This document shows positions 1 to 58,698 of a stretch of 64,000 nt of DNA, piece after piece. This DNA comes from Colwellia polaris. GTDB lineage: Archaea > Nanohalarchaeota > Nanosalinia > Nanosalinales > Nanosalinaceae. The translations under genes and the position numbers were made by a program. Each line of letters begins with the position of its first letter. The stretch's first letter is position 1. The DNA is taken from NCBI GenBank assembly GCA_047617785.1, contig JBLGBK010000002.1, positions 32,001-96,000 on the forward strand. The letters run 5' to 3'. The notes beneath the pieces were generated by a model. That model had not been told where the DNA came from. It saw only the letters and a program-made list of their open reading frames with translations, and did not search any database.

Positions 1-3000
1 AGCACAGTTACCGCGATCGACTTCAATGGAAATAAATATCTGACAGGGAGCAACAACGGGAGGTTGGCAACATATGACGGAACAAACTGGAATCAAATTA
101 ACCAGAATAGTATAGGAACAGTTCATTCTATCAAGTGGGGAACCATAAACGGCGACTCATTTTGGCTTGTAGGCGGATCAAACGGAAATGTTCTGAAGGT
201 GCAAGAGGACGGTACCACGACCACACTCAGCACAGGATTTGGGAACTCGGTAAGCTCAATCGGTTACTCTGGAGATAACGAAAAATTCTTGCTAGGAGAT
301 GGAAACGGCAATGTAGCAAATTACACCTCAAACGGCCTCCAACAGACAAGCCAGAACGTATTCAGCAACTCTATAAGAACAATGATGTACAACCCAGCCT
401 CATCAAGAAAGAAGATGGGAGAACCTTCAGATCTAGACAACGACGACGAAGTAGAGGTCCCTATTGTAACAGAGGGATCAGACCTGGCTCTCATACCTAG
501 CTCAGGTTCAACTAACGTAATAGACTCAAGCTACGGAAGTGCAAAGGCTTCACCTCTAGGCACTGTTGACTGGACTGGAAACCCTTCAGAGGAAATCATC
601 CATATCAACACTAACTCCGACACACTATATCTTTCAGATATCAGCGGTAACGAACAATCAATAACCGACTCAGGAGAGAACCAAGTAACCGGAATAGAAC
701 AATCAACAGGAATATCCTCAGGCTCGATGCCCCAAGGAATACCTGTCCTCCAGATAAACGGACAGAAAGTACTGAACACCGGGGGTCAACCGCTCAATCC
801 AGACAACTGGACAATGATAACCGCCAAATATGACGCCTCAACAGAGTCGGCCGAACTTTACTTCAACTCGACACTCATTGACTCAAAGACCGTCAATCTG
901 GGAACAGTAAACCCGAATTCAAAAGACTTCAAGATAGCCAACGGAAAGCTTAACGCCACCATAGACGAAGTAAGAGTCTATAACGAATCTGTGACTTCAA
1001 GCCAAATAGACCGGCTATTCTTCAACGGAACTGATGGACAGTTCGATGGTGCCTACAACTCTACTATAGTAAATCCTGAAGGAAAGAAATCCTGGAGCCA
1101 ATTTATGATAGATGCCAATGAATCACCTGGTACCTCCGTTTCAGGTACAGTCTACTCTTTAGATGATGCTAATAATATCCTGAATGCCCAATCTATTACT
1201 ATCAATGACGGTAAAACTAACTACAGTATTTCAACTCTCCCAAATTCGAAGAAAATCAAGTTCTCATTCGACGGTTACAGCTCAGATATACAGAAGACCT
1301 GGGAGATTTTTGAGACACGTATATACTATGAAGACTCTCTAAAAGCAGGTAATATCACCAGTAGTGACTACAAAAACAAGCACAAGTTTAACATCTCAGC
1401 TACAGCCCGAGAAGCTGATTCAAACAGCAATATAAACGGATGTTCTGCCTATTATACCACTGATTCTCTCGAAGGTTATTTCGCAGTAGACGGAACGACT
1501 CTAAACTTAAGCTTTGGAAACGATAACCACGTCTCCTGTAACGCAACCATTGGTCCTGATCTAACTACCGTAGGCTACGGAGGAAGTAATTCTCCTCAGG
1601 CGACATTTAAGTTCAATTTCACGGATAACGACGGTTACACTGTCGGAACCATAAACCAGACAGAAACACTTCCGAACAACCAGCCAATCATCCTGAAAAC
1701 TAACCAGGAGGGCTCCTCAACAGACCACAGCTTCAATTTCTCAGCAGTAGCGAAGGATCAAGATGGTTCAGGAGACATCACCTCTTGCACAGTATACGCA
1801 GAGGACAATGATGGAAACCAGTATACAGCAAGTAATCTCAACACCTCATATGGAACCAGCACACAGGCATCATGTAACGCAACTATTTCGAGCTCCATAA
1901 ACGGTCTGGAAGTGGGAGAAGACATTCAGATGTACGCAGATTTCACCGATGTAGCAGGTACAACCTCATCGACCGCCATCTACACGCAGTCAATCCCTAA
2001 TCACAATCCAGAAATCGAGAGCGGTCCTAATCTTGAGAAAGTTTCAGGAGAACATGCCTTCAGCGTCTCAGCTGTAGCTTCGGACACTGATTCTGGAAGT
2101 TCTGAAATCAACTCATGCACAGTATACGCAGAAGATGGAGACGGAAACACCAAGGTTTTCTCAGGTTCAGGCCTTGTAGATCAAAGCTACGGAACAACAG
2201 ACCAGGCAAGCTGCAATACCTCCATAAGTAATTCTATAGAGAACTTCACTGTAGGGGAATCTATCACTGTTGACGTCAGCTTCTCTGATAAGCACGGAGC
2301 ACAGACAACAAACAACACTGGTACGAAAACAATACCTAACACGGCTCCAAGCAAACCCACAAACCTAAACATGACATACTTCCTACAAAACAACGCAGAT
2401 ATAAACCACGTAATAGACCACACACCAAAGATAAACTGGACCAATCCAACAGACCCAGAAGGAGACGCTATTACGATTAAAGCCTATACCGAGTCTTCAG
2501 CTAATCCTAACCAGCTGGACAACCAAACTAATTCAAGTTCAAGGCTAACTCTCGGGCAGAACATAGGTCTTAACGATGGAACCAGCTACAATGTAAGCCT
2601 TAGAGCATGCGATCCTTACAGCTGCAGCAACTACACCAACAACACAGAATTCACAATGAATGAAGAACCTTCTATCGAATCAGTAAGTCTGAATTACTCA
2701 AGCGTGACGGGAAGCGACTCTGTCAAACTGCAGGCAAACATTACCGACACAGACGATATTGACTCGGCGAACTACACATTATACAACCAGAGCTCGGGCG
2801 ACTTGATATATTCCAACAGTGAAGGGACTCTATCAGACCAGCTCTGGAACTCTGACTCCTTCGAAGTGCTCGCAGGAAACACTTACAACTGGACATTAAA
2901 GACCTCAGACGGATACCAAACAAGTAGCACAACAGGAACTTTCAGCGTATCAAACAGTCCTCCAGAAATACTTGAACCTCTTAATACTAGTGAATACTCC

Positions 3001-44382: not shown

Positions 44383-44386
44383 ATCT

Positions 44387-44719
44387 ATGGTTGACAAGGC
44401 TAAGGCTGCTGGCACTCTTTACATGTGGACCTACCAGATCGAGCAGTCGGACAACATCCTTGAAAACCCTCATTATTCTTTAGAGAGCGCTGAAATATTC
44501 ATAGATCGCTATCTAAGACCTGATGAAGAACAGTACCTGAAAGAACACTACCTCCAAGAGATAGAAGATGAAACTGATACCTCACAGTTCAAGTTAACTG
44601 AGAAGGGGAAAGTGGCTTCAGGTAACGTATACGACCATGTACAAGAAGAGAACAACGGAAACATACAGCAGTTTATTGACTGGGCAGATGAAGAAACAGT
44701 TGAAAGCCTGCTGACCTAG
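44387..44719 (+). CDS. Hypothetical protein, possible winged-helix
   Basis: ATG at 44387 just after leuS; FKLTEKGK wing-like motif. Confidence 0.55.
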   Translation: MVDKAKAAGTLYMWTYQIEQSDNILENPHYSLESAEIFIDRYLRPDEEQYLKEHYLQEIEDETDTSQFKLTEKGKVASGNVYDHVQEENNGNIQQFIDWADEETVESLLT

Positions 44720-47048: not shown

Positions 47049-47435
47049 ATGCTAAAGGAAATTGCAGCAGTAATCCTGGTAATTGGAGCTGCTACCGCAG
47101 GAACTCTTGGAAACTATGCAGATCGCGTAGGTCTCTCCGATGAAGGAGAGAAAAAAGCTAACTTCCTTGTAAAGCAGTATGAATGCACACAGCAAGAGTT
47201 CCAGATTGTAAACGCAGATTCAGATTCTATATCAATTGAAAACACAGGAGAAAAGGACATATCAGAGATAGAGCTGACCTGGGAATACCAGTCCGAAAAC
47301 AACACAAAGAACACACTTCAGAACCTACAGTCCGGAGAGACGAAAACAAGAAGTACTTTAGGCACAGGAGATCTACAGGCCGCATACGCCGAAATCCCTG
47401 GCTGCATTCTCAAAACCGAGACTTACCGCCCATAA
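47049..47435 (+). CDS. Pilin-like/surface protein
   Basis: Hydrophobic N-terminus IAAVILVIGAATAG, two Cys, ISIENTG; no clear class III cleavage site. Confidence 0.5.
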   Translation: MLKEIAAVILVIGAATAGTLGNYADRVGLSDEGEKKANFLVKQYECTQQEFQIVNADSDSISIENTGEKDISEIELTWEYQSENNTKNTLQNLQSGETKTRSTLGTGDLQAAYAEIPGCILKTETYRP

Positions 47436-47445
47436 AGGAATCGGG

Positions 47446-47453
47446 CTTATAAG
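47446..47453 (+). promoter_or_regulatory. TATA-like box upstream of the structured RNA/secE operon
   Basis: CTTATAAG with a purine-rich upstream segment, ~45 nt before the first stem. Confidence 0.45.
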
Positions 47454-47497
47454 ATTTATCTTCTAAAAACTCTACTACTTGAACAGTAAAATCACCC

Positions 47498-47623
47498 GTC
47501 TGCACCACCATCTAGGTGGGAGGGAGAGAAAACGCAGTTCAACACCGAAAGCCTTGACCAATGTTTGAAGAGGCTGCTGCGACAAGAATTTCTCTCTTTC
47601 TCACAAAACTAATGGGGGCGGAC
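47498..47623 (+). ncRNA. Unidentified rod-like structured RNA or 5' leader upstream of secE
   Basis: Nested stems: GTCTGC 47498-503/GCGGAC 47618-623; 16-bp GTGGGAGGGAGAGAAA 47516-531/TTTCTCTCTTTCTCAC 47589-604 with three G-U pairs that work only on the + strand; CGCAG 47533-537/CTGCG 47577-581. Confidence 0.65.
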
Positions 47624-47655
47624 ACTAAAAGGCGAACAAAGGTAAAACAAACGCA

Positions 47656-47877
47656 ATGGAACTCAACAAGGAGAACCTTGAGAAAAAGGTTTCAAAGGCA
47701 CGAAACGCTGTAAAATCCAGGATACGAGAATATCAGCGAGTGCTTAAAATATCAGAAAAACCCGATCGAGAAGAATTCGAAACCAGCGCAAAGATCACAG
47801 GTCTCGGAATTCTATTAATCGGGGTAATAGGCTTCCTGTTTTACCTGGCCGCAAACCTGATCCCTAACTACATTTAA
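47656..47877 (+). CDS. secE: Protein translocase subunit SecE/Sec61-gamma
   Basis: EYQRVLKISEKPDREEF plus C-terminal TM; conserved position before spt5. Confidence 0.93.
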   Translation: MELNKENLEKKVSKARNAVKSRIREYQRVLKISEKPDREEFETSAKITGLGILLIGVIGFLFYLAANLIPNYI

Positions 47878-47898: not shown

Positions 47899-48333
47899 AT
47901 GATTTTAACAGCAAGAACAACACGTGGAAGAGAGAAAAACGCTATCGAGCAGATGCGTAGCAAAATGAAGACAAGAGACTACGATATCAAAGCACTCTTC
48001 CACCCTGACGATATCGAAGGATATGTCTTCATCGAAGGAAATGAAGGCGACATCAAAGATCTAGCAGACGAGATAAGAAACGTCCGAGGAGTACTCGACA
48101 AAGAAGTAGAGATCACACAGATCGAAAAGTACCTAGATGAAGAGCAGGAAGACATCAAACTGGAGGAAGGTGACACTGTCGATGTAATCGGCGGGCCTTT
48201 CGAAGGAGAAGAAGCTAAAATCAAGAGAGTCGATGAAAACAACCGGGAAGTTACAATCGAACTGCTCGAAGCAGCAGTACCTATCCCGACAACAGTTGAC
48301 GTCGACACAGTACGTAAGAAGGCAAGCAATTAG
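47899..48333 (+). CDS. spt5: Transcription elongation factor Spt5
   Basis: NGN domain (GYVFIE) and KOW (GDTVDVIGGPFEG). Confidence 0.95.
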   Translation: MILTARTTRGREKNAIEQMRSKMKTRDYDIKALFHPDDIEGYVFIEGNEGDIKDLADEIRNVRGVLDKEVEITQIEKYLDEEQEDIKLEEGDTVDVIGGPFEGEEAKIKRVDENNREVTIELLEAAVPIPTTVDVDTVRKKASN

Positions 48334-48348
48334 AGGTAACACAATACT

Positions 48349-48849
48349 ATGGGAGACAAGACCACAATTAACACACTCGTGGAAGGAGGGTCAGCATCCG
48401 CTGGACCTCCGCTAGGACCAGAACTAGGACCGCTACCCGTCGACGTAGGCGCGGTAGTAGGTAAAATCAACGAAAAAACCAAGGACTTCGAAGGCATGGA
48501 AGTACCAGTCGACGTCATAGTCGACGAGGAAACTGGAGACTTCGAGATCGAGGTCGGAAAGCCACCAGCAGCCCAGCTAATCATCGATGAACTGGGAATC
48601 GAAAAAGGCTCAGGTGAACCTAACAAGAACAAAGTAGCTGACATGAGCTTTGAACAGGCGTGCAAAGTCGCACGTATGAAGGACACCGACCTACTCGGAA
48701 TGGATCTTCGGGGAGCTGTCAAAGAGATCATCGGAACAGCTCAGTCAATGGGAATCACCATCGACGGAGAAGACGCATACGAAGTCCAGCAGAAAATCAA
48801 AAACGGCGAATACGACGATCAGCTTGAAGCCGAAGAAGGTATCGAATAG
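48349..48849 (+). CDS. rpl11: 50S ribosomal protein L11 (uL11)
   Basis: GGSASAGPPLGPELGP, IIGTAQSMG. Confidence 0.97.
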   Translation: MGDKTTINTLVEGGSASAGPPLGPELGPLPVDVGAVVGKINEKTKDFEGMEVPVDVIVDEETGDFEIEVGKPPAAQLIIDELGIEKGSGEPNKNKVADMSFEQACKVARMKDTDLLGMDLRGAVKEIIGTAQSMGITIDGEDAYEVQQKIKNGEYDDQLEAEEGIE

Positions 48850-48860
48850 GTGAATAAAAA

Positions 48861-49487
48861 GTGAATTTCGAAGAAGCAGTACAGAAAGCACTGGAAGAAA
48901 GAGAAGAAAGAAACTTCAGCGAAAGCATCGATCTGATATTCAACTTCAAGGATATCGATCTAAGCGACCCTGACAACAGATTCAATGAAGACTTCAAACT
49001 TCCTTTCCAGGCAGACGACGAAGTTAAAATCGCAGTAATAGGAGACACACTCGTCAACAACGCAGAAAACGCAGACGGCGAGATTACAGAAGACGAACTG
49101 GAAGAGTACTTCGACAACCCAAGCGATGCAAAGGAACTGGCAGACGAATACAGTTTCCTGATAGCAGAAGCACCTCTGATGCCTAAGATTGGAGGACAGT
49201 TAGGACAGGTACTCGGACCGCGCAACATGATGCCAGATCCAATGCCACCAGGAAGCGATCCAACAGAAGAAATCGAACAGCTAAGAAATACAGTCACACT
49301 AAGACTTCGTGAAGACCCACTAATGCAGATCAAGGTCGGAACCGAAGACAAAGACGCAGAAGACGTTGCAAGAAACGCTTCCTCAGTCTACGATTTCGTA
49401 AGAGGTCACCTGGAGAAGGGAGACAACCAGATCAAGTCAATCCTGGTCAAAACCACCATGGGTAGCCCAGTAGAGGTGGAGAACTAA
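48861..49487 (+). CDS. rpl1: 50S ribosomal protein L1 (uL1)
   Basis: RNFSESIDL, LGQVLGPRNMMP, VKTTMG. Confidence 0.97.
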   Translation: MNFEEAVQKALEEREERNFSESIDLIFNFKDIDLSDPDNRFNEDFKLPFQADDEVKIAVIGDTLVNNAENADGEITEDELEEYFDNPSDAKELADEYSFLIAEAPLMPKIGGQLGQVLGPRNMMPDPMPPGSDPTEEIEQLRNTVTLRLREDPLMQIKVGTEDKDAEDVARNASSVYDFVRGHLEKGDNQIKSILVKTTMGSPVEVEN

Positions 49488-50419
49488 TGGTACAACCAAC
49501 CCCAAAGAACATGACCCGTGAAGAAAAAGAGGAGAAGGTAGAGTTCTTCAAACAGAGAATTGAAGACAACCCAGTAATAGGAATCCTCGACATGAACAAC
49601 CTTCCTTCACGACAGCTACAACAGATCAAGAAGGACATGAAGGACTTCTCCGACATCAAGATGAGTCGAAAGACCTTGATCAACATCGCAATAGAGAAGT
49701 CAGATAAAGAGGGCATCGAACAGCTTGAAGAAGAAAACGAAGCTGTACAGCCAGCATTCATCTTCTCCGAGAAAGATCCTTTCCAGCTATACCAATTGAT
49801 CAAAGAGAACAAGACTTCTGCAGCAGCAGACGGAGGAGAAGTCGCACCTAACGACATCGAAATCCCTGAAGGAGACACAGGAATCGGTCCAGGGCCTATG
49901 CTTGGAAAACTGCAGAGCGCAGGAGCGCAGGTACAGGTAGACGACGGATCAATCCACGTGCAGAAGCCAGCAGTACTAGTCGAAAAAGGAGAAGTAATAA
50001 CAGAAGACGACGCAGAAATCCTGAACCAAATGGGAATCGAGCCACTCGAAATTGGGCTCGACCTAGACATCGCATACAACGACGGAGAAATCTTTGCAGC
50101 AGAAGCACTTGATATCGACACCGATCAGTACAGAGCAGATGTCGAAGCAGCAGCAAGCAGAGCATTCAACCTTGCAGTCAACGCAGGACTTGTCAACGAA
50201 ACAACAGCACCAACACTTCTCAAAGAAGCAGTCAGGAAAGCGAAGAACCTCGCAATTAGCGAAGGACTTCCAGAAGAAGAGACAATCGAAGAAGCAATTA
50301 GCTACGCTGCATCTGGAGCAGAAGCAGTCGATTCAGAAGTCGACCTCGAATCAGTTGACCTTGAAGACGAAGAAACTGAAGACAAGGACACAGAAGAATC
50401 AGAGGAAGAAGAGGAATAA
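49487..50419 (+). CDS. rpl10: 50S ribosomal protein L10/P0 (uL10)
   Basis: LPSRQLQQIK, GDTGIGPGP, acidic tail. Confidence 0.96.
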   Translation: MVQPTPKNMTREEKEEKVEFFKQRIEDNPVIGILDMNNLPSRQLQQIKKDMKDFSDIKMSRKTLINIAIEKSDKEGIEQLEEENEAVQPAFIFSEKDPFQLYQLIKENKTSAAADGGEVAPNDIEIPEGDTGIGPGPMLGKLQSAGAQVQVDDGSIHVQKPAVLVEKGEVITEDDAEILNQMGIEPLEIGLDLDIAYNDGEIFAAEALDIDTDQYRADVEAAASRAFNLAVNAGLVNETTAPTLLKEAVRKAKNLAISEGLPEEETIEEAISYAASGAEAVDSEVDLESVDLEDEETEDKDTEESEEEEE

Positions 50420-58138: not shown

Positions 58139-58173
58139 CAGATTTACCTAACATCCCTCTCTTCTTTTTCCAT

Positions 58174-58557
58174 ATGAAGTTTGAAATTTACGATACATAA
58201 ATAGGCTTAGACGACTTTTTGATACTAGAGAGAGCCGATGATATCCAAATACAGCTTGAAGAATAATTTTTCAGGAGAGCGAAAACAATTCAACCGTGAT
58301 ATAGGTTTTTCAGACGGATTCCGCGACGAAGTTATCAGGAGATAGCTCAGATACCATGCGACAAGACCAAGACTTACGGAGAACTCGCAGAAAAACTAGA
58401 TTCTGCATCGGTTGCTGTTGGACAGCCCTGCGGCCAGAATCCGCTACCTGTTATTGTCCCTTGTCATCGTATTGTTGGAAAAGATTCTATAGGCGGTTAC
58501 ATCTATGGCGAAAACATGAAGAGAAAGCTGCTAGAGTTGGAGTCGGCAGATTTTTAA
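58174..58557 (+). pseudogene. ogt: Disrupted O6-methylguanine-DNA methyltransferase
   Basis: ATG at 58174, in-frame TAA at 58198 and 58264, frameshifted middle (SGERKQF...FRDEV), intact C-terminal half TYGELAEKLDS..AVGQPCGQNPLPVIVPCHRIVG...KRKLLELE* with PCHR at 58459-58470. Confidence 0.88.
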
Positions 58558-58698
58558 AAATCTCTGTGTTAAACTTTGTCACCAATGAAAGGTGGACGTT
58601 TTTCTCACCGACCCCGTTTTGCAACTTACCAGGCTTGATGAGAGCCTTTTCTATCCAAAACCTGTTCTAAATAAACGTTTCTTCCACAGTGATGTCTT

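Follow-up and report, generated by a model that had tools for sequence, protein, structure and literature searches.

Leaders for ribosomal protein L1 (uL1) of haloarchaea and Archaeoglobus are said to have been described by Kraft et al. in 1999 and by Shimmin and Dennis in 1989. In sections of Fu et al. (2013, PMC3616713) messenger RNAs (mRNAs) that interact with L1 are treated for E. coli and Methanococcus vannielii, and the bacterial leader is portrayed as a stem with an internal bulge, in which a G-A pair is possible, and an unpaired A. L1 from Haloferax, Methanococcus or Sulfolobus binds heterologous L1 sites, according to literature cited in that paper. According to the part of PMC5689012 that deals with the L1 target, the core in ribosomal RNA (rRNA) and mRNA is built from the short duplex of helix 77, which domain I holds, from J1-2 as a joining strand, and from the base of helix 78, with variation in the second joining strand (loop B). 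Further archaeal ribosomal protein leaders, namely two for S15 and those for eL15 and L4, are found in the accessible text of Eckert and Weinberg (2020, PMC7247131). Here, we analyzed a window of 64,000 nucleotides (nt) from the assembly GCA_047617785.1 (Colwellia polaris, placed in the Nanohalarchaeota; contig JBLGBK010000002.1), the window being the whole stretch of DNA under study. Upstream of its secE gene lies an RNA element which heads the operon secE-spt5-rpl11-rpl1-rpl10 and which may represent a circularly permuted site for uL1, the product of rpl1.

A DNA search of 40 relatives recovered secE in 14 of them, and the leader was alignable within the same genus only. All 14 loci share a common layout upstream of secE. 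It begins with a TTATAAAA box, followed after about 30 nt by the motif CCCGY and the segment A-CCACC-loop-GGUGG-GA-GGG; next come a variable hairpin and the pyrimidine-rich strand UYUCUA, and then a Shine-Dalgarno sequence precedes the start codon. A covariance model, named R1, was built from 12 of these 14 leaders. Using E <= 0.01 as cutoff, R1 matched 47 of 70 genomes of the order, once in each matching genome, and gave 29.4 bits for the window leader. The sample for the phylum consists of the identical 70 genomes. Genomes of the order have sizes of 0.5-1.7 Mb, and the translations from the window look acidic by eye, which would fit the nanohaloarchaea named in the sequence-only reading. Six genomes missed by R1 nevertheless have the locus, and all six carry the motif once the filters are switched off; these are G046 and five genomes from other families, with divergent versions at the expected place in the same gene order. 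Of five genomes without a match that were tested first, G046 being one, the other four also have no Spt5 gene, therefore the locus is not assembled there. The set of 55 leaders used in the following comprises every genome of the phylum with a readable locus, and eleven genomes without a match are outside this set.

Directly 3' of the element, secE was found on the same strand in all 55 leaders (50 of 50 plus 5 of 5), and the motif ends close to the secE start, within a narrow range of mostly 19-33 nt. A TATA box of the TTATAAAA type precedes the CYCG motif by 28-37 nt in 45 of 49 leaders. As this spacing fits the usual archaeal one, the transcript probably starts at CCCGU or a few nt before it. 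No terminator, T-run or second promoter conserved between the structure and secE was found in the leaders. In a search outside of the phylum that covered a single other phylum, R1, a model that misses divergent members, had no match in 31 loci and one weak match (E 0.03) among 101 genomes. A 14-letter gapped pattern, scanned over genome contigs and too loose for this purpose, yielded chance matches only, mostly in unrelated bacteria. The element is a real, phylum-wide structured 5' leader of secE-spt5-rpl11-rpl1-rpl10. An earlier inspection of the window, the sequence-only reading, had named dispersed copies, indicative of a miniature inverted-repeat transposable element, as one of the outcomes that would speak against an RNA. 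The element is single-copy in its own 787-kb genome, where the remaining matches do not exceed 22 nt (E >= 0.35), and with one R1 match per matching genome a dispersed repeat was rejected.

The conserved architecture across the relatives is a three-way junction of the helices P1, P2 and P3, not a rod. Covariation was computed on a model-based alignment of 49 leaders. For P2 98.8% of the cells were found paired, with compensatory changes at four of five pairs and the variants CCACC/GGUGG, CCGUC/GGCGG, CCAUC/GAUGG, CCAGC/GCUGG, CUGUC/GACAG, CUGCC/GGCAG and CUACC/GGUAG; its loop has 3 nt in 27 of the 55 leaders. For P3 79.5% were paired, with compensatory changes at six of nine pairs. The covariation score of 0.356 compares to 0.232 for shuffled alignments, none of 500 reaching it, and to at most 0.201 for slid controls. 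Covariation upstream of secE, one of the checks which the sequence-only reading had suggested, is present, and the many G-U pairs in the leaders fix the strand. Imposing P2 alone on the fold, a P1 of at least 4 base pairs (bp) enclosing P2 and P3 was obtained in 49 of 55 leaders, and its sequences near the junction differ widely. Since MAFFT misaligned the 3' halves of the leaders, P1 was tested by duplex energies instead of column counts. Cognate strands gave -11.5 and non-cognate strands -9.9 kcal/mol, a difference reached by none of 5000 permutations, which is moderate support, as the relatives are not independent. In many relatives the 3' strand of P1 adjoins or overlaps the Shine-Dalgarno sequence.

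At the center of the structure, the junction A-C...G-RA-GRG is invariant in 55 of 55 leaders (hyphens mark the borders between helices and joining strands). The A preceding P2, the closing C-G pair of P2, the second junction letter after P2 (A) and the G with which P3 begins are kept in every leader; at the first junction letter, 48 leaders have G and 7 have A. The strand following P3 contains CUA in 29 and UAA in 16 of 53 leaders. The element of the window is long because of an insertion of about 55 nt in P3 (47532-47588), which is genus-specific and common only to the same-genus locus L008; an own long insertion was found in L062 (G053). In L068:1170-1251 (G046, genus g21) a P2 of 6 bp, an insertion of about 28 nt in the P2 loop forming a small hairpin, and an AA junction were observed.

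In the window itself, the sequence-only reading had described a rod-like RNA of about 125 nt in an unusually long gap of 220 bp, with nested stems including a 16-bp helix whose three G-U pairs are valid on the + strand only. The gap ranks second by length among 56 gaps of the window (median 20.5 nt, crude gene call). Its + strand folds with -58.4 kcal/mol (z-score -3.45; 1 of 200 shuffles equally good), compared to a z-score of -0.14 for the - strand, for which 86 of 200 shuffles were equally good. The 16-bp helix is formed by 47516-47531 with 47589-47604, and its G-U pairs would be C-A mismatches on the opposite strand. The entire rod spans about 47498-47623. The rod holds as the predicted minimum-energy fold of this genus, while the fold conserved among the relatives is the three-way junction. 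The genus of the window forms the rod because of the P3 insertion together with a 3' strand that lets GGUGG pair downstream. Of the 55 leaders, 29 have a P2-containing fold as their free minimum, to within 1 kcal/mol; in the other 26 the prediction favors a rod that lacks P2, by 1.7-17.9 kcal/mol.

In the rod fold GGUGGGAGGG pairs with the pyrimidine strand, and the 5' strand of P2 together with its loop (often ACCACCUCU, which is anti-Shine-Dalgarno-like) pairs downstream, partly with the Shine-Dalgarno sequence. The latter pairing gave -7.3 kcal/mol for cognate and -6.4 kcal/mol for non-cognate strands, with none of 5000 permutations reaching the cognate value. The alternative rod fold may be real. 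The predicted accessibility of the Shine-Dalgarno sequence in 52 leaders was 0.40 with P2 and 0.35 in the rod ensemble, being higher with P2 in 10 and lower in 3. In the window the Shine-Dalgarno sequence lies about 20 nt beyond the structure and is predicted to be unpaired to 0.87 in both folds. Shine-Dalgarno sequestration was rejected as mechanism, as no consistent difference in accessibility between the folds was found. Several genera (L040, L049, L060, L065 and L066) have in common a box UAGAGG(U/C)A, which follows the pyrimidine strand and precedes the secE start by about 25-35 nt. Its sequence complements the 5' strand and loop of P2 (CCACCUCU or CUGCCUC), and it is too distant from the start codon to serve as the Shine-Dalgarno sequence of secE.

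No known RNA family was recognized, in line with the sequence-only reading. At gathering score no Rfam family matched in the whole window, a permissive scan of 47300-47800 gave two chance matches to small nucleolar RNAs only (E 6.1 and 8.8), and the loci of 15 relatives yielded nothing except one chance match to mir-133. ARAGORN found no transfer RNA (tRNA) in the window. The idea of a highly derived relative of signal recognition particle (SRP) RNA beside secE had to be given up, because an ordinary archaeal SRP RNA (RF01857) is encoded on another contig of the same genome (G000:C5:33053-33325, 132.7 bits, above the cut-off). For the promoter-mimic RNA that had also been considered, nothing was found in favor.

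The junction resembles the L1 stalk of 23S rRNA, which in the genome of the window is encoded at G000:C2:5798-8752. The stalk reads GgugG-GA-Gcc ... ggC-gacaaUGaaACA-CcacC in the Rfam consensus of the archaeal large subunit rRNA and GKUAG-RA-GAC ... GUC-GAYCAUGGGACA-CUAMC in the rRNA of the clade, compared to A-CCACC-loop-GGUGG-GA-GGG in the window leader. All three parts of the L1 core are present in the leader, and the letters concerned are its most conserved ones. GGUGG-GA-G and A-CCACC of the leader correspond to GgugG-GA-G and A-CcacC of the consensus, and the first letter of loop A is G/A polymorphic both in the rRNA of the clade and in the leaders. In contrast, the 12-nt loop B and the featured hairpin of helix 78 are absent from the leader, and the connectivity is permuted. 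In L067 (family f2) GGUAG-GA-GAG and A-CUACC of the leader stand against GGUAG-GA-GAC and A-CUACC of the clade rRNA. Loop A of the clade rRNA is AA in 5 of 19 genomes and otherwise GA. The two AA leaders for which rRNA data exist (G021 and G061, different genera) both come from genomes with AA in the rRNA; among the 18 genomes with both kinds of data no AA leader came from a genome with GA, and three genomes with AA have GA leaders. By hand count this match has a chance of about 0.07, and with relatives that are not independent it is weak evidence. The Rfam archaeal consensus gives capital letters for the GA of loop A and a lower-case one for the junction letter of the GTPase center.

Classical L1 leaders were sampled in another archaeal phylum, which was entered via a chance match at a Methanotrichaceae archaeon locus. 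Directly upstream of rpl1, a pattern search detected the leader YCGUAG-NA-GAC..GUC-G..A-CUACGG-SD, where SD is the Shine-Dalgarno sequence, in 23 of 30 loci, and a model built from 20 classical leaders added four more loci to give 27 of 30 (L218, L221, L225, L228, L232, L234, L216, L229, L231 and others). They are located about 20-60 nt before the rpl1 start, for example at L218:1437-1476. In 20 of 20 classical leaders the junction keeps the letters G-NA-G...A-C, and these five invariants coincide with those of the 55 secE leaders. The first letter of the NA step is G in 10, U in 6 and A in 4 leaders and is followed by A in all 20; the second letter of the stem resembling helix 78 is A or G in both leader types. 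In the phylum of the window, a search with this model found no classical L1 leader near rpl1, the best matches being weak and elsewhere, and in the window rpl11 and rpl1 are 11 nt apart. One weak match of the classical model at 1565-1583 (+), with 20.2 bits, E 0.0033 and a length of 19 nt, lies far from the operon and is probably due to chance. A scan of seven loci with classical leaders against Rfam 15 gave no match; this type of archaeal leader has been described before but seems to be without a family model.

With the classical archaeal uL1 site the secE leader shares the short duplex ending in G-C close to the junction, the NA step, a second helix starting with G, the single A, the location in a messenger encoding uL1 and the likeness to helices 77 and 78 of 23S rRNA. 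In the classical site, an asymmetric internal loop interrupts a stem, the 3' strand of which adjoins the Shine-Dalgarno sequence of rpl1. The leader differs in that its duplex is capped by a loop, the loop B strand is split by P1, and the element is placed before secE. The strand returning from P3 ends in A in 55 of 55 leaders, but starts with U or C and is interrupted by P1, and the linear order (3'-type strand, loop, 5'-type strand, P3) is a circular permutation of the classical one. The model of the classical site does not detect the secE leader, and the reverse search with R1 also fails. By this comparison of features the leader is not a member of the classical L1 family; it is proposed to act like one. 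As far as the sections of Fu et al. (2013, PMC3616713) go, bacterial L1 leaders before rplK/rplA work by the same principle, an rRNA mimic with L1 feedback on an operon containing L11, and differ from the secE leader in domain of life, gene context and the lack of a three-helix architecture. In the accessible text of Eckert and Weinberg (2020, PMC7247131) the leaders are of the same class, i.e., candidate archaeal ribosomal protein leaders which are partly rRNA-like; none is for L1 or lies before secE, and secE, uL1, L11 and nusG are absent from that text.

From these similarities we propose that the leader is a circularly permuted uL1-binding autoregulatory site, a reading for which we see about as much reason for belief as for doubt. 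The option of a cis-leader with ribosomal protein feedback, one of several in the sequence-only reading, is thereby favored by the position between TATA box and secE, the covariation and the junction resembling an L1 site. Driven by the strong TATA box, transcription would begin at CCCGU or immediately upstream of it. The RNA would fold into the junction, in which P1 pairs the 5' end with a stretch close upstream of the Shine-Dalgarno sequence of secE. The junction A-C..P2..G-RA-GRG..P3 would copy the core recognized by uL1, i.e., the helix 77 duplex, loop A and the base of helix 78, in permuted order: a loop closes the duplex resembling helix 77, and both ends of the chain pass through the loop B position, which carries P1. 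After saturating new rRNA, uL1 would bind the leader and lock the junction fold against the rod. Expression of the operon would then fall via secE initiation and/or messenger stability, so that uL1, uL11 and uL10 would come under feedback control, with SecE and Spt5 affected incidentally. A further step, possible but doubtful, would be a bistable permuted L1 sensor. According to the folding models, the rod pairs both strands of the L1 hairpin elsewhere, including the anti-Shine-Dalgarno-like strand, and uL1 would select the junction.

Several points weigh against uL1 as ligand. Where all classical leaders and the rRNA have G, the strand leaving P3 starts with U or C. Opposite the A of the GA step there is often U or C, and this A may be paired; the element is 1.2 kb away from rpl1. 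The similarity of the junctions rests on few letters, and we know of no permuted, helix-interrupted L1 site. In the window, the rod without P2 is favored by 7.0 kcal/mol, with a pair probability of about 0 for P2 in the free ensemble. The predicted accessibility of the Shine-Dalgarno sequence hardly differs between the folds and therefore points to no route of repression. Finally, the local motif of the GTPase center (GCGGG-G-AGG ... A-CCCGU) and its three-helix topology open alternatives with uL10 or uL11.

In one such alternative, the leader would mimic the GTPase-associated center (helices 42, 43 and 44) and be bound by uL10 (P0) with or without uL11. Since both proteins are encoded in the operon, this would also result in autoregulation. 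The own rRNA of the organism reads GCGGG-G-AGGUUAGC ... CCCU-UUAAAG..H44..-A-CCCGU in this region, with H44 for helix 44. Like the leader, the center has a closing helix of 5 bp, a G/A-A step, a single A before the closing strand, and joining strands of 1-2, about 6 and 1 nt. Its junction G is replaced by A in 2 of 17 relatives, and UA(A) is often found in the strand following P3 of the leader. According to the part of PMC4538822 on the bacterial L10(L12)4 target, that protein complex recognizes a kink-turn and an unpaired UAA. The L10(L12)4 leader and the GTPase center share the three-helix topology and the G-A step with the secE leader, and the operon encodes uL10; however, a kink-turn cannot be accommodated in P2, a plain, uninterrupted 5-bp hairpin often with a 3-nt loop, and only the mentioned 16 of 53 leaders have UAA near the P3 end. 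Moreover, nothing in the leader corresponds to the most conserved letters of the rRNA center, which lie in the loops of helices 43 and 44; the apex of P3 is variable and P1 is an ordinary helix. In the two genomes with AA leaders and rRNA data, the GTPase center junction has G. No archaeal L10 or L11 leader is known to us, although no search was aimed at one, which also counts against this explanation, and we regard it as decidedly improbable.

An element acting without any protein was considered as well, either a 5'-terminal structure that protects the messenger or sets the translation rate, or a switch between junction and rod in response to temperature, salt or co-transcriptional folding. 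The preference for a fold without P2 in 26 of 55 leaders, the better pairing of cognate rod segments and the start of the structure at the presumed 5' end are consistent with it. We judge it unlikely, as it leaves unexplained why five junction letters invariant in 55 of 55 leaders coincide with the invariants of the L1 site; in addition, the Shine-Dalgarno accessibility is not consistently different between the folds, and the energies were obtained with a nearest-neighbor model on purine- and pyrimidine-rich strands of relatives that are not independent. Conservation at a three-way junction combined with variable helix tips, as found in many riboswitches, might point to a small molecule or ion bound in the junction. 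No Rfam riboswitch family matched, the downstream housekeeping genes for translation, transcription and secretion offer no obvious metabolite logic, and the few conserved letters are already explained by the similarity to the L1 site, which makes a riboswitch extremely unlikely. Very unlikely is also the free-standing small RNA of the sequence-only reading, which would have its own promoter and merely lie in front of secE. The strong TATA box upstream and L021, with TTTAAAAA between structure and secE, would suit such an RNA; the short and tightly kept distance to the start codon, the lack of a conserved terminator, T-run or second promoter in between, the absence of any other evident secE promoter and the position of the P1 3' strand at or in the Shine-Dalgarno sequence of many relatives argue for a leader. 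An Spt5 feedback element is conceivable but found no specific support.

A whole phylum of archaea with small genomes has kept the element, with clear covariation, at the head of an operon for SecE, Spt5, uL11, uL1 and uL10. Both the secE leader and the classical archaeal L1 leader matched no family in Rfam 15, and the secE leader provides a marker for annotation. A limited literature search linking Nanohaloarchae with such an element found no report. If uL1 binds, the leader would show that evolution can reassemble a ribosomal protein site in permuted order and relocate it from the start of rpl1 to the front of a longer operon. Factors of secretion and transcription elongation would be tied to the feedback of ribosome assembly, and a compact natural RNA for the study of L1 recognition would be available. 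If the bistable sensor existed as well, one ribosomal protein would jointly set the output of the Sec translocon subunit SecE, the universal elongation factor Spt5 and the proteins of the ribosomal stalk base in very small genomes. It would represent the first natural circular permutation of a ribosomal protein site and the first cis-regulatory RNA described for the phylum.

The features of the locus are summarized in Table 1. The gap upstream of secE extends from 47436 to 47655. The five genes are tightly packed on one strand, occur in identical order in the relatives and are probably co-transcribed with the leader on one messenger. The TATA-like box of the sequence-only reading was located again; it lies 49 nt from the CYCG motif, and a second TATA-like site lies 34 nt from it. 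In the relatives, Shine-Dalgarno sequences of the GGUG(A) type are found 5-12 nt before the secE start codon.

Table 1. Features of the leader and of the operon behind it (positions in the window; functional names of leader parts are proposals).
Feature	Position	Strand	Basis
TATA box, putative operon promoter	47446-47454	+	read in sequence
Second TATA-like site	47461-47469	+	read in sequence
5' motif CCCGU (CYCGY in all families), part of P1 5' strand	47495-47499	+	alignments
P1 5' strand, ending in A47504 before P2	47496-47504	+	P2-constrained fold
P2 hairpin CCACC, 5-nt loop, GGUGG; duplex resembling helix 77	47505-47519	+	covariation
Junction GA, resembling loop A	47520-47521	+	leader alignment
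P3 hairpin, base GGG...CUC resembling helix 78	47522-47598	+	folds, covariation
Pyrimidine-rich strand after P3, UCUCAC AAAACUAA here, UYUCUA-type in relatives	47599-47612	+	folds
P1 3' strand	47613-47621 (junction fold); GCGGAC 47618-47623 (rod fold)	+	folds
Shine-Dalgarno sequence AGGU of secE	47640-47643	+	read in sequence
secE	47656-47877	+	Pfam SecE, E 1.8e-5
spt5 (NGN + KOW)	47899-48333	+	Pfam search
rpl11 (uL11)	48349-48849	+	Pfam search
rpl1 (uL1), proposed regulator	48861-49487	+	Pfam Ribosomal_L1, E 2e-38
rpl10 (uL10/P0)	49487-50419	+	Pfam search

The 5' neighbor of the gap is an open reading frame (ORF) of 128 amino acids (47049-47435, +), located between ftsZ and the leader. It belongs to no Pfam family and has a homologue in the same-genus relative L008 only (80% identity); in other genera ftsZ or other genes lie immediately 5' of the leader. 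The longest gap of the window according to the crude gene call is 44383-44715 (333 nt), between genes on the + and the - strand. A further region of about 560 nt (58139-58698) lies between ORFs of 341 and 422 amino acids, which by eye resemble tyrosyl- and seryl-tRNA synthetases. Its first 217 nt have no excess of structure (z-score +1.0), and its sole ORF, with 104 amino acids and rich in Cys and Arg, looks spurious.

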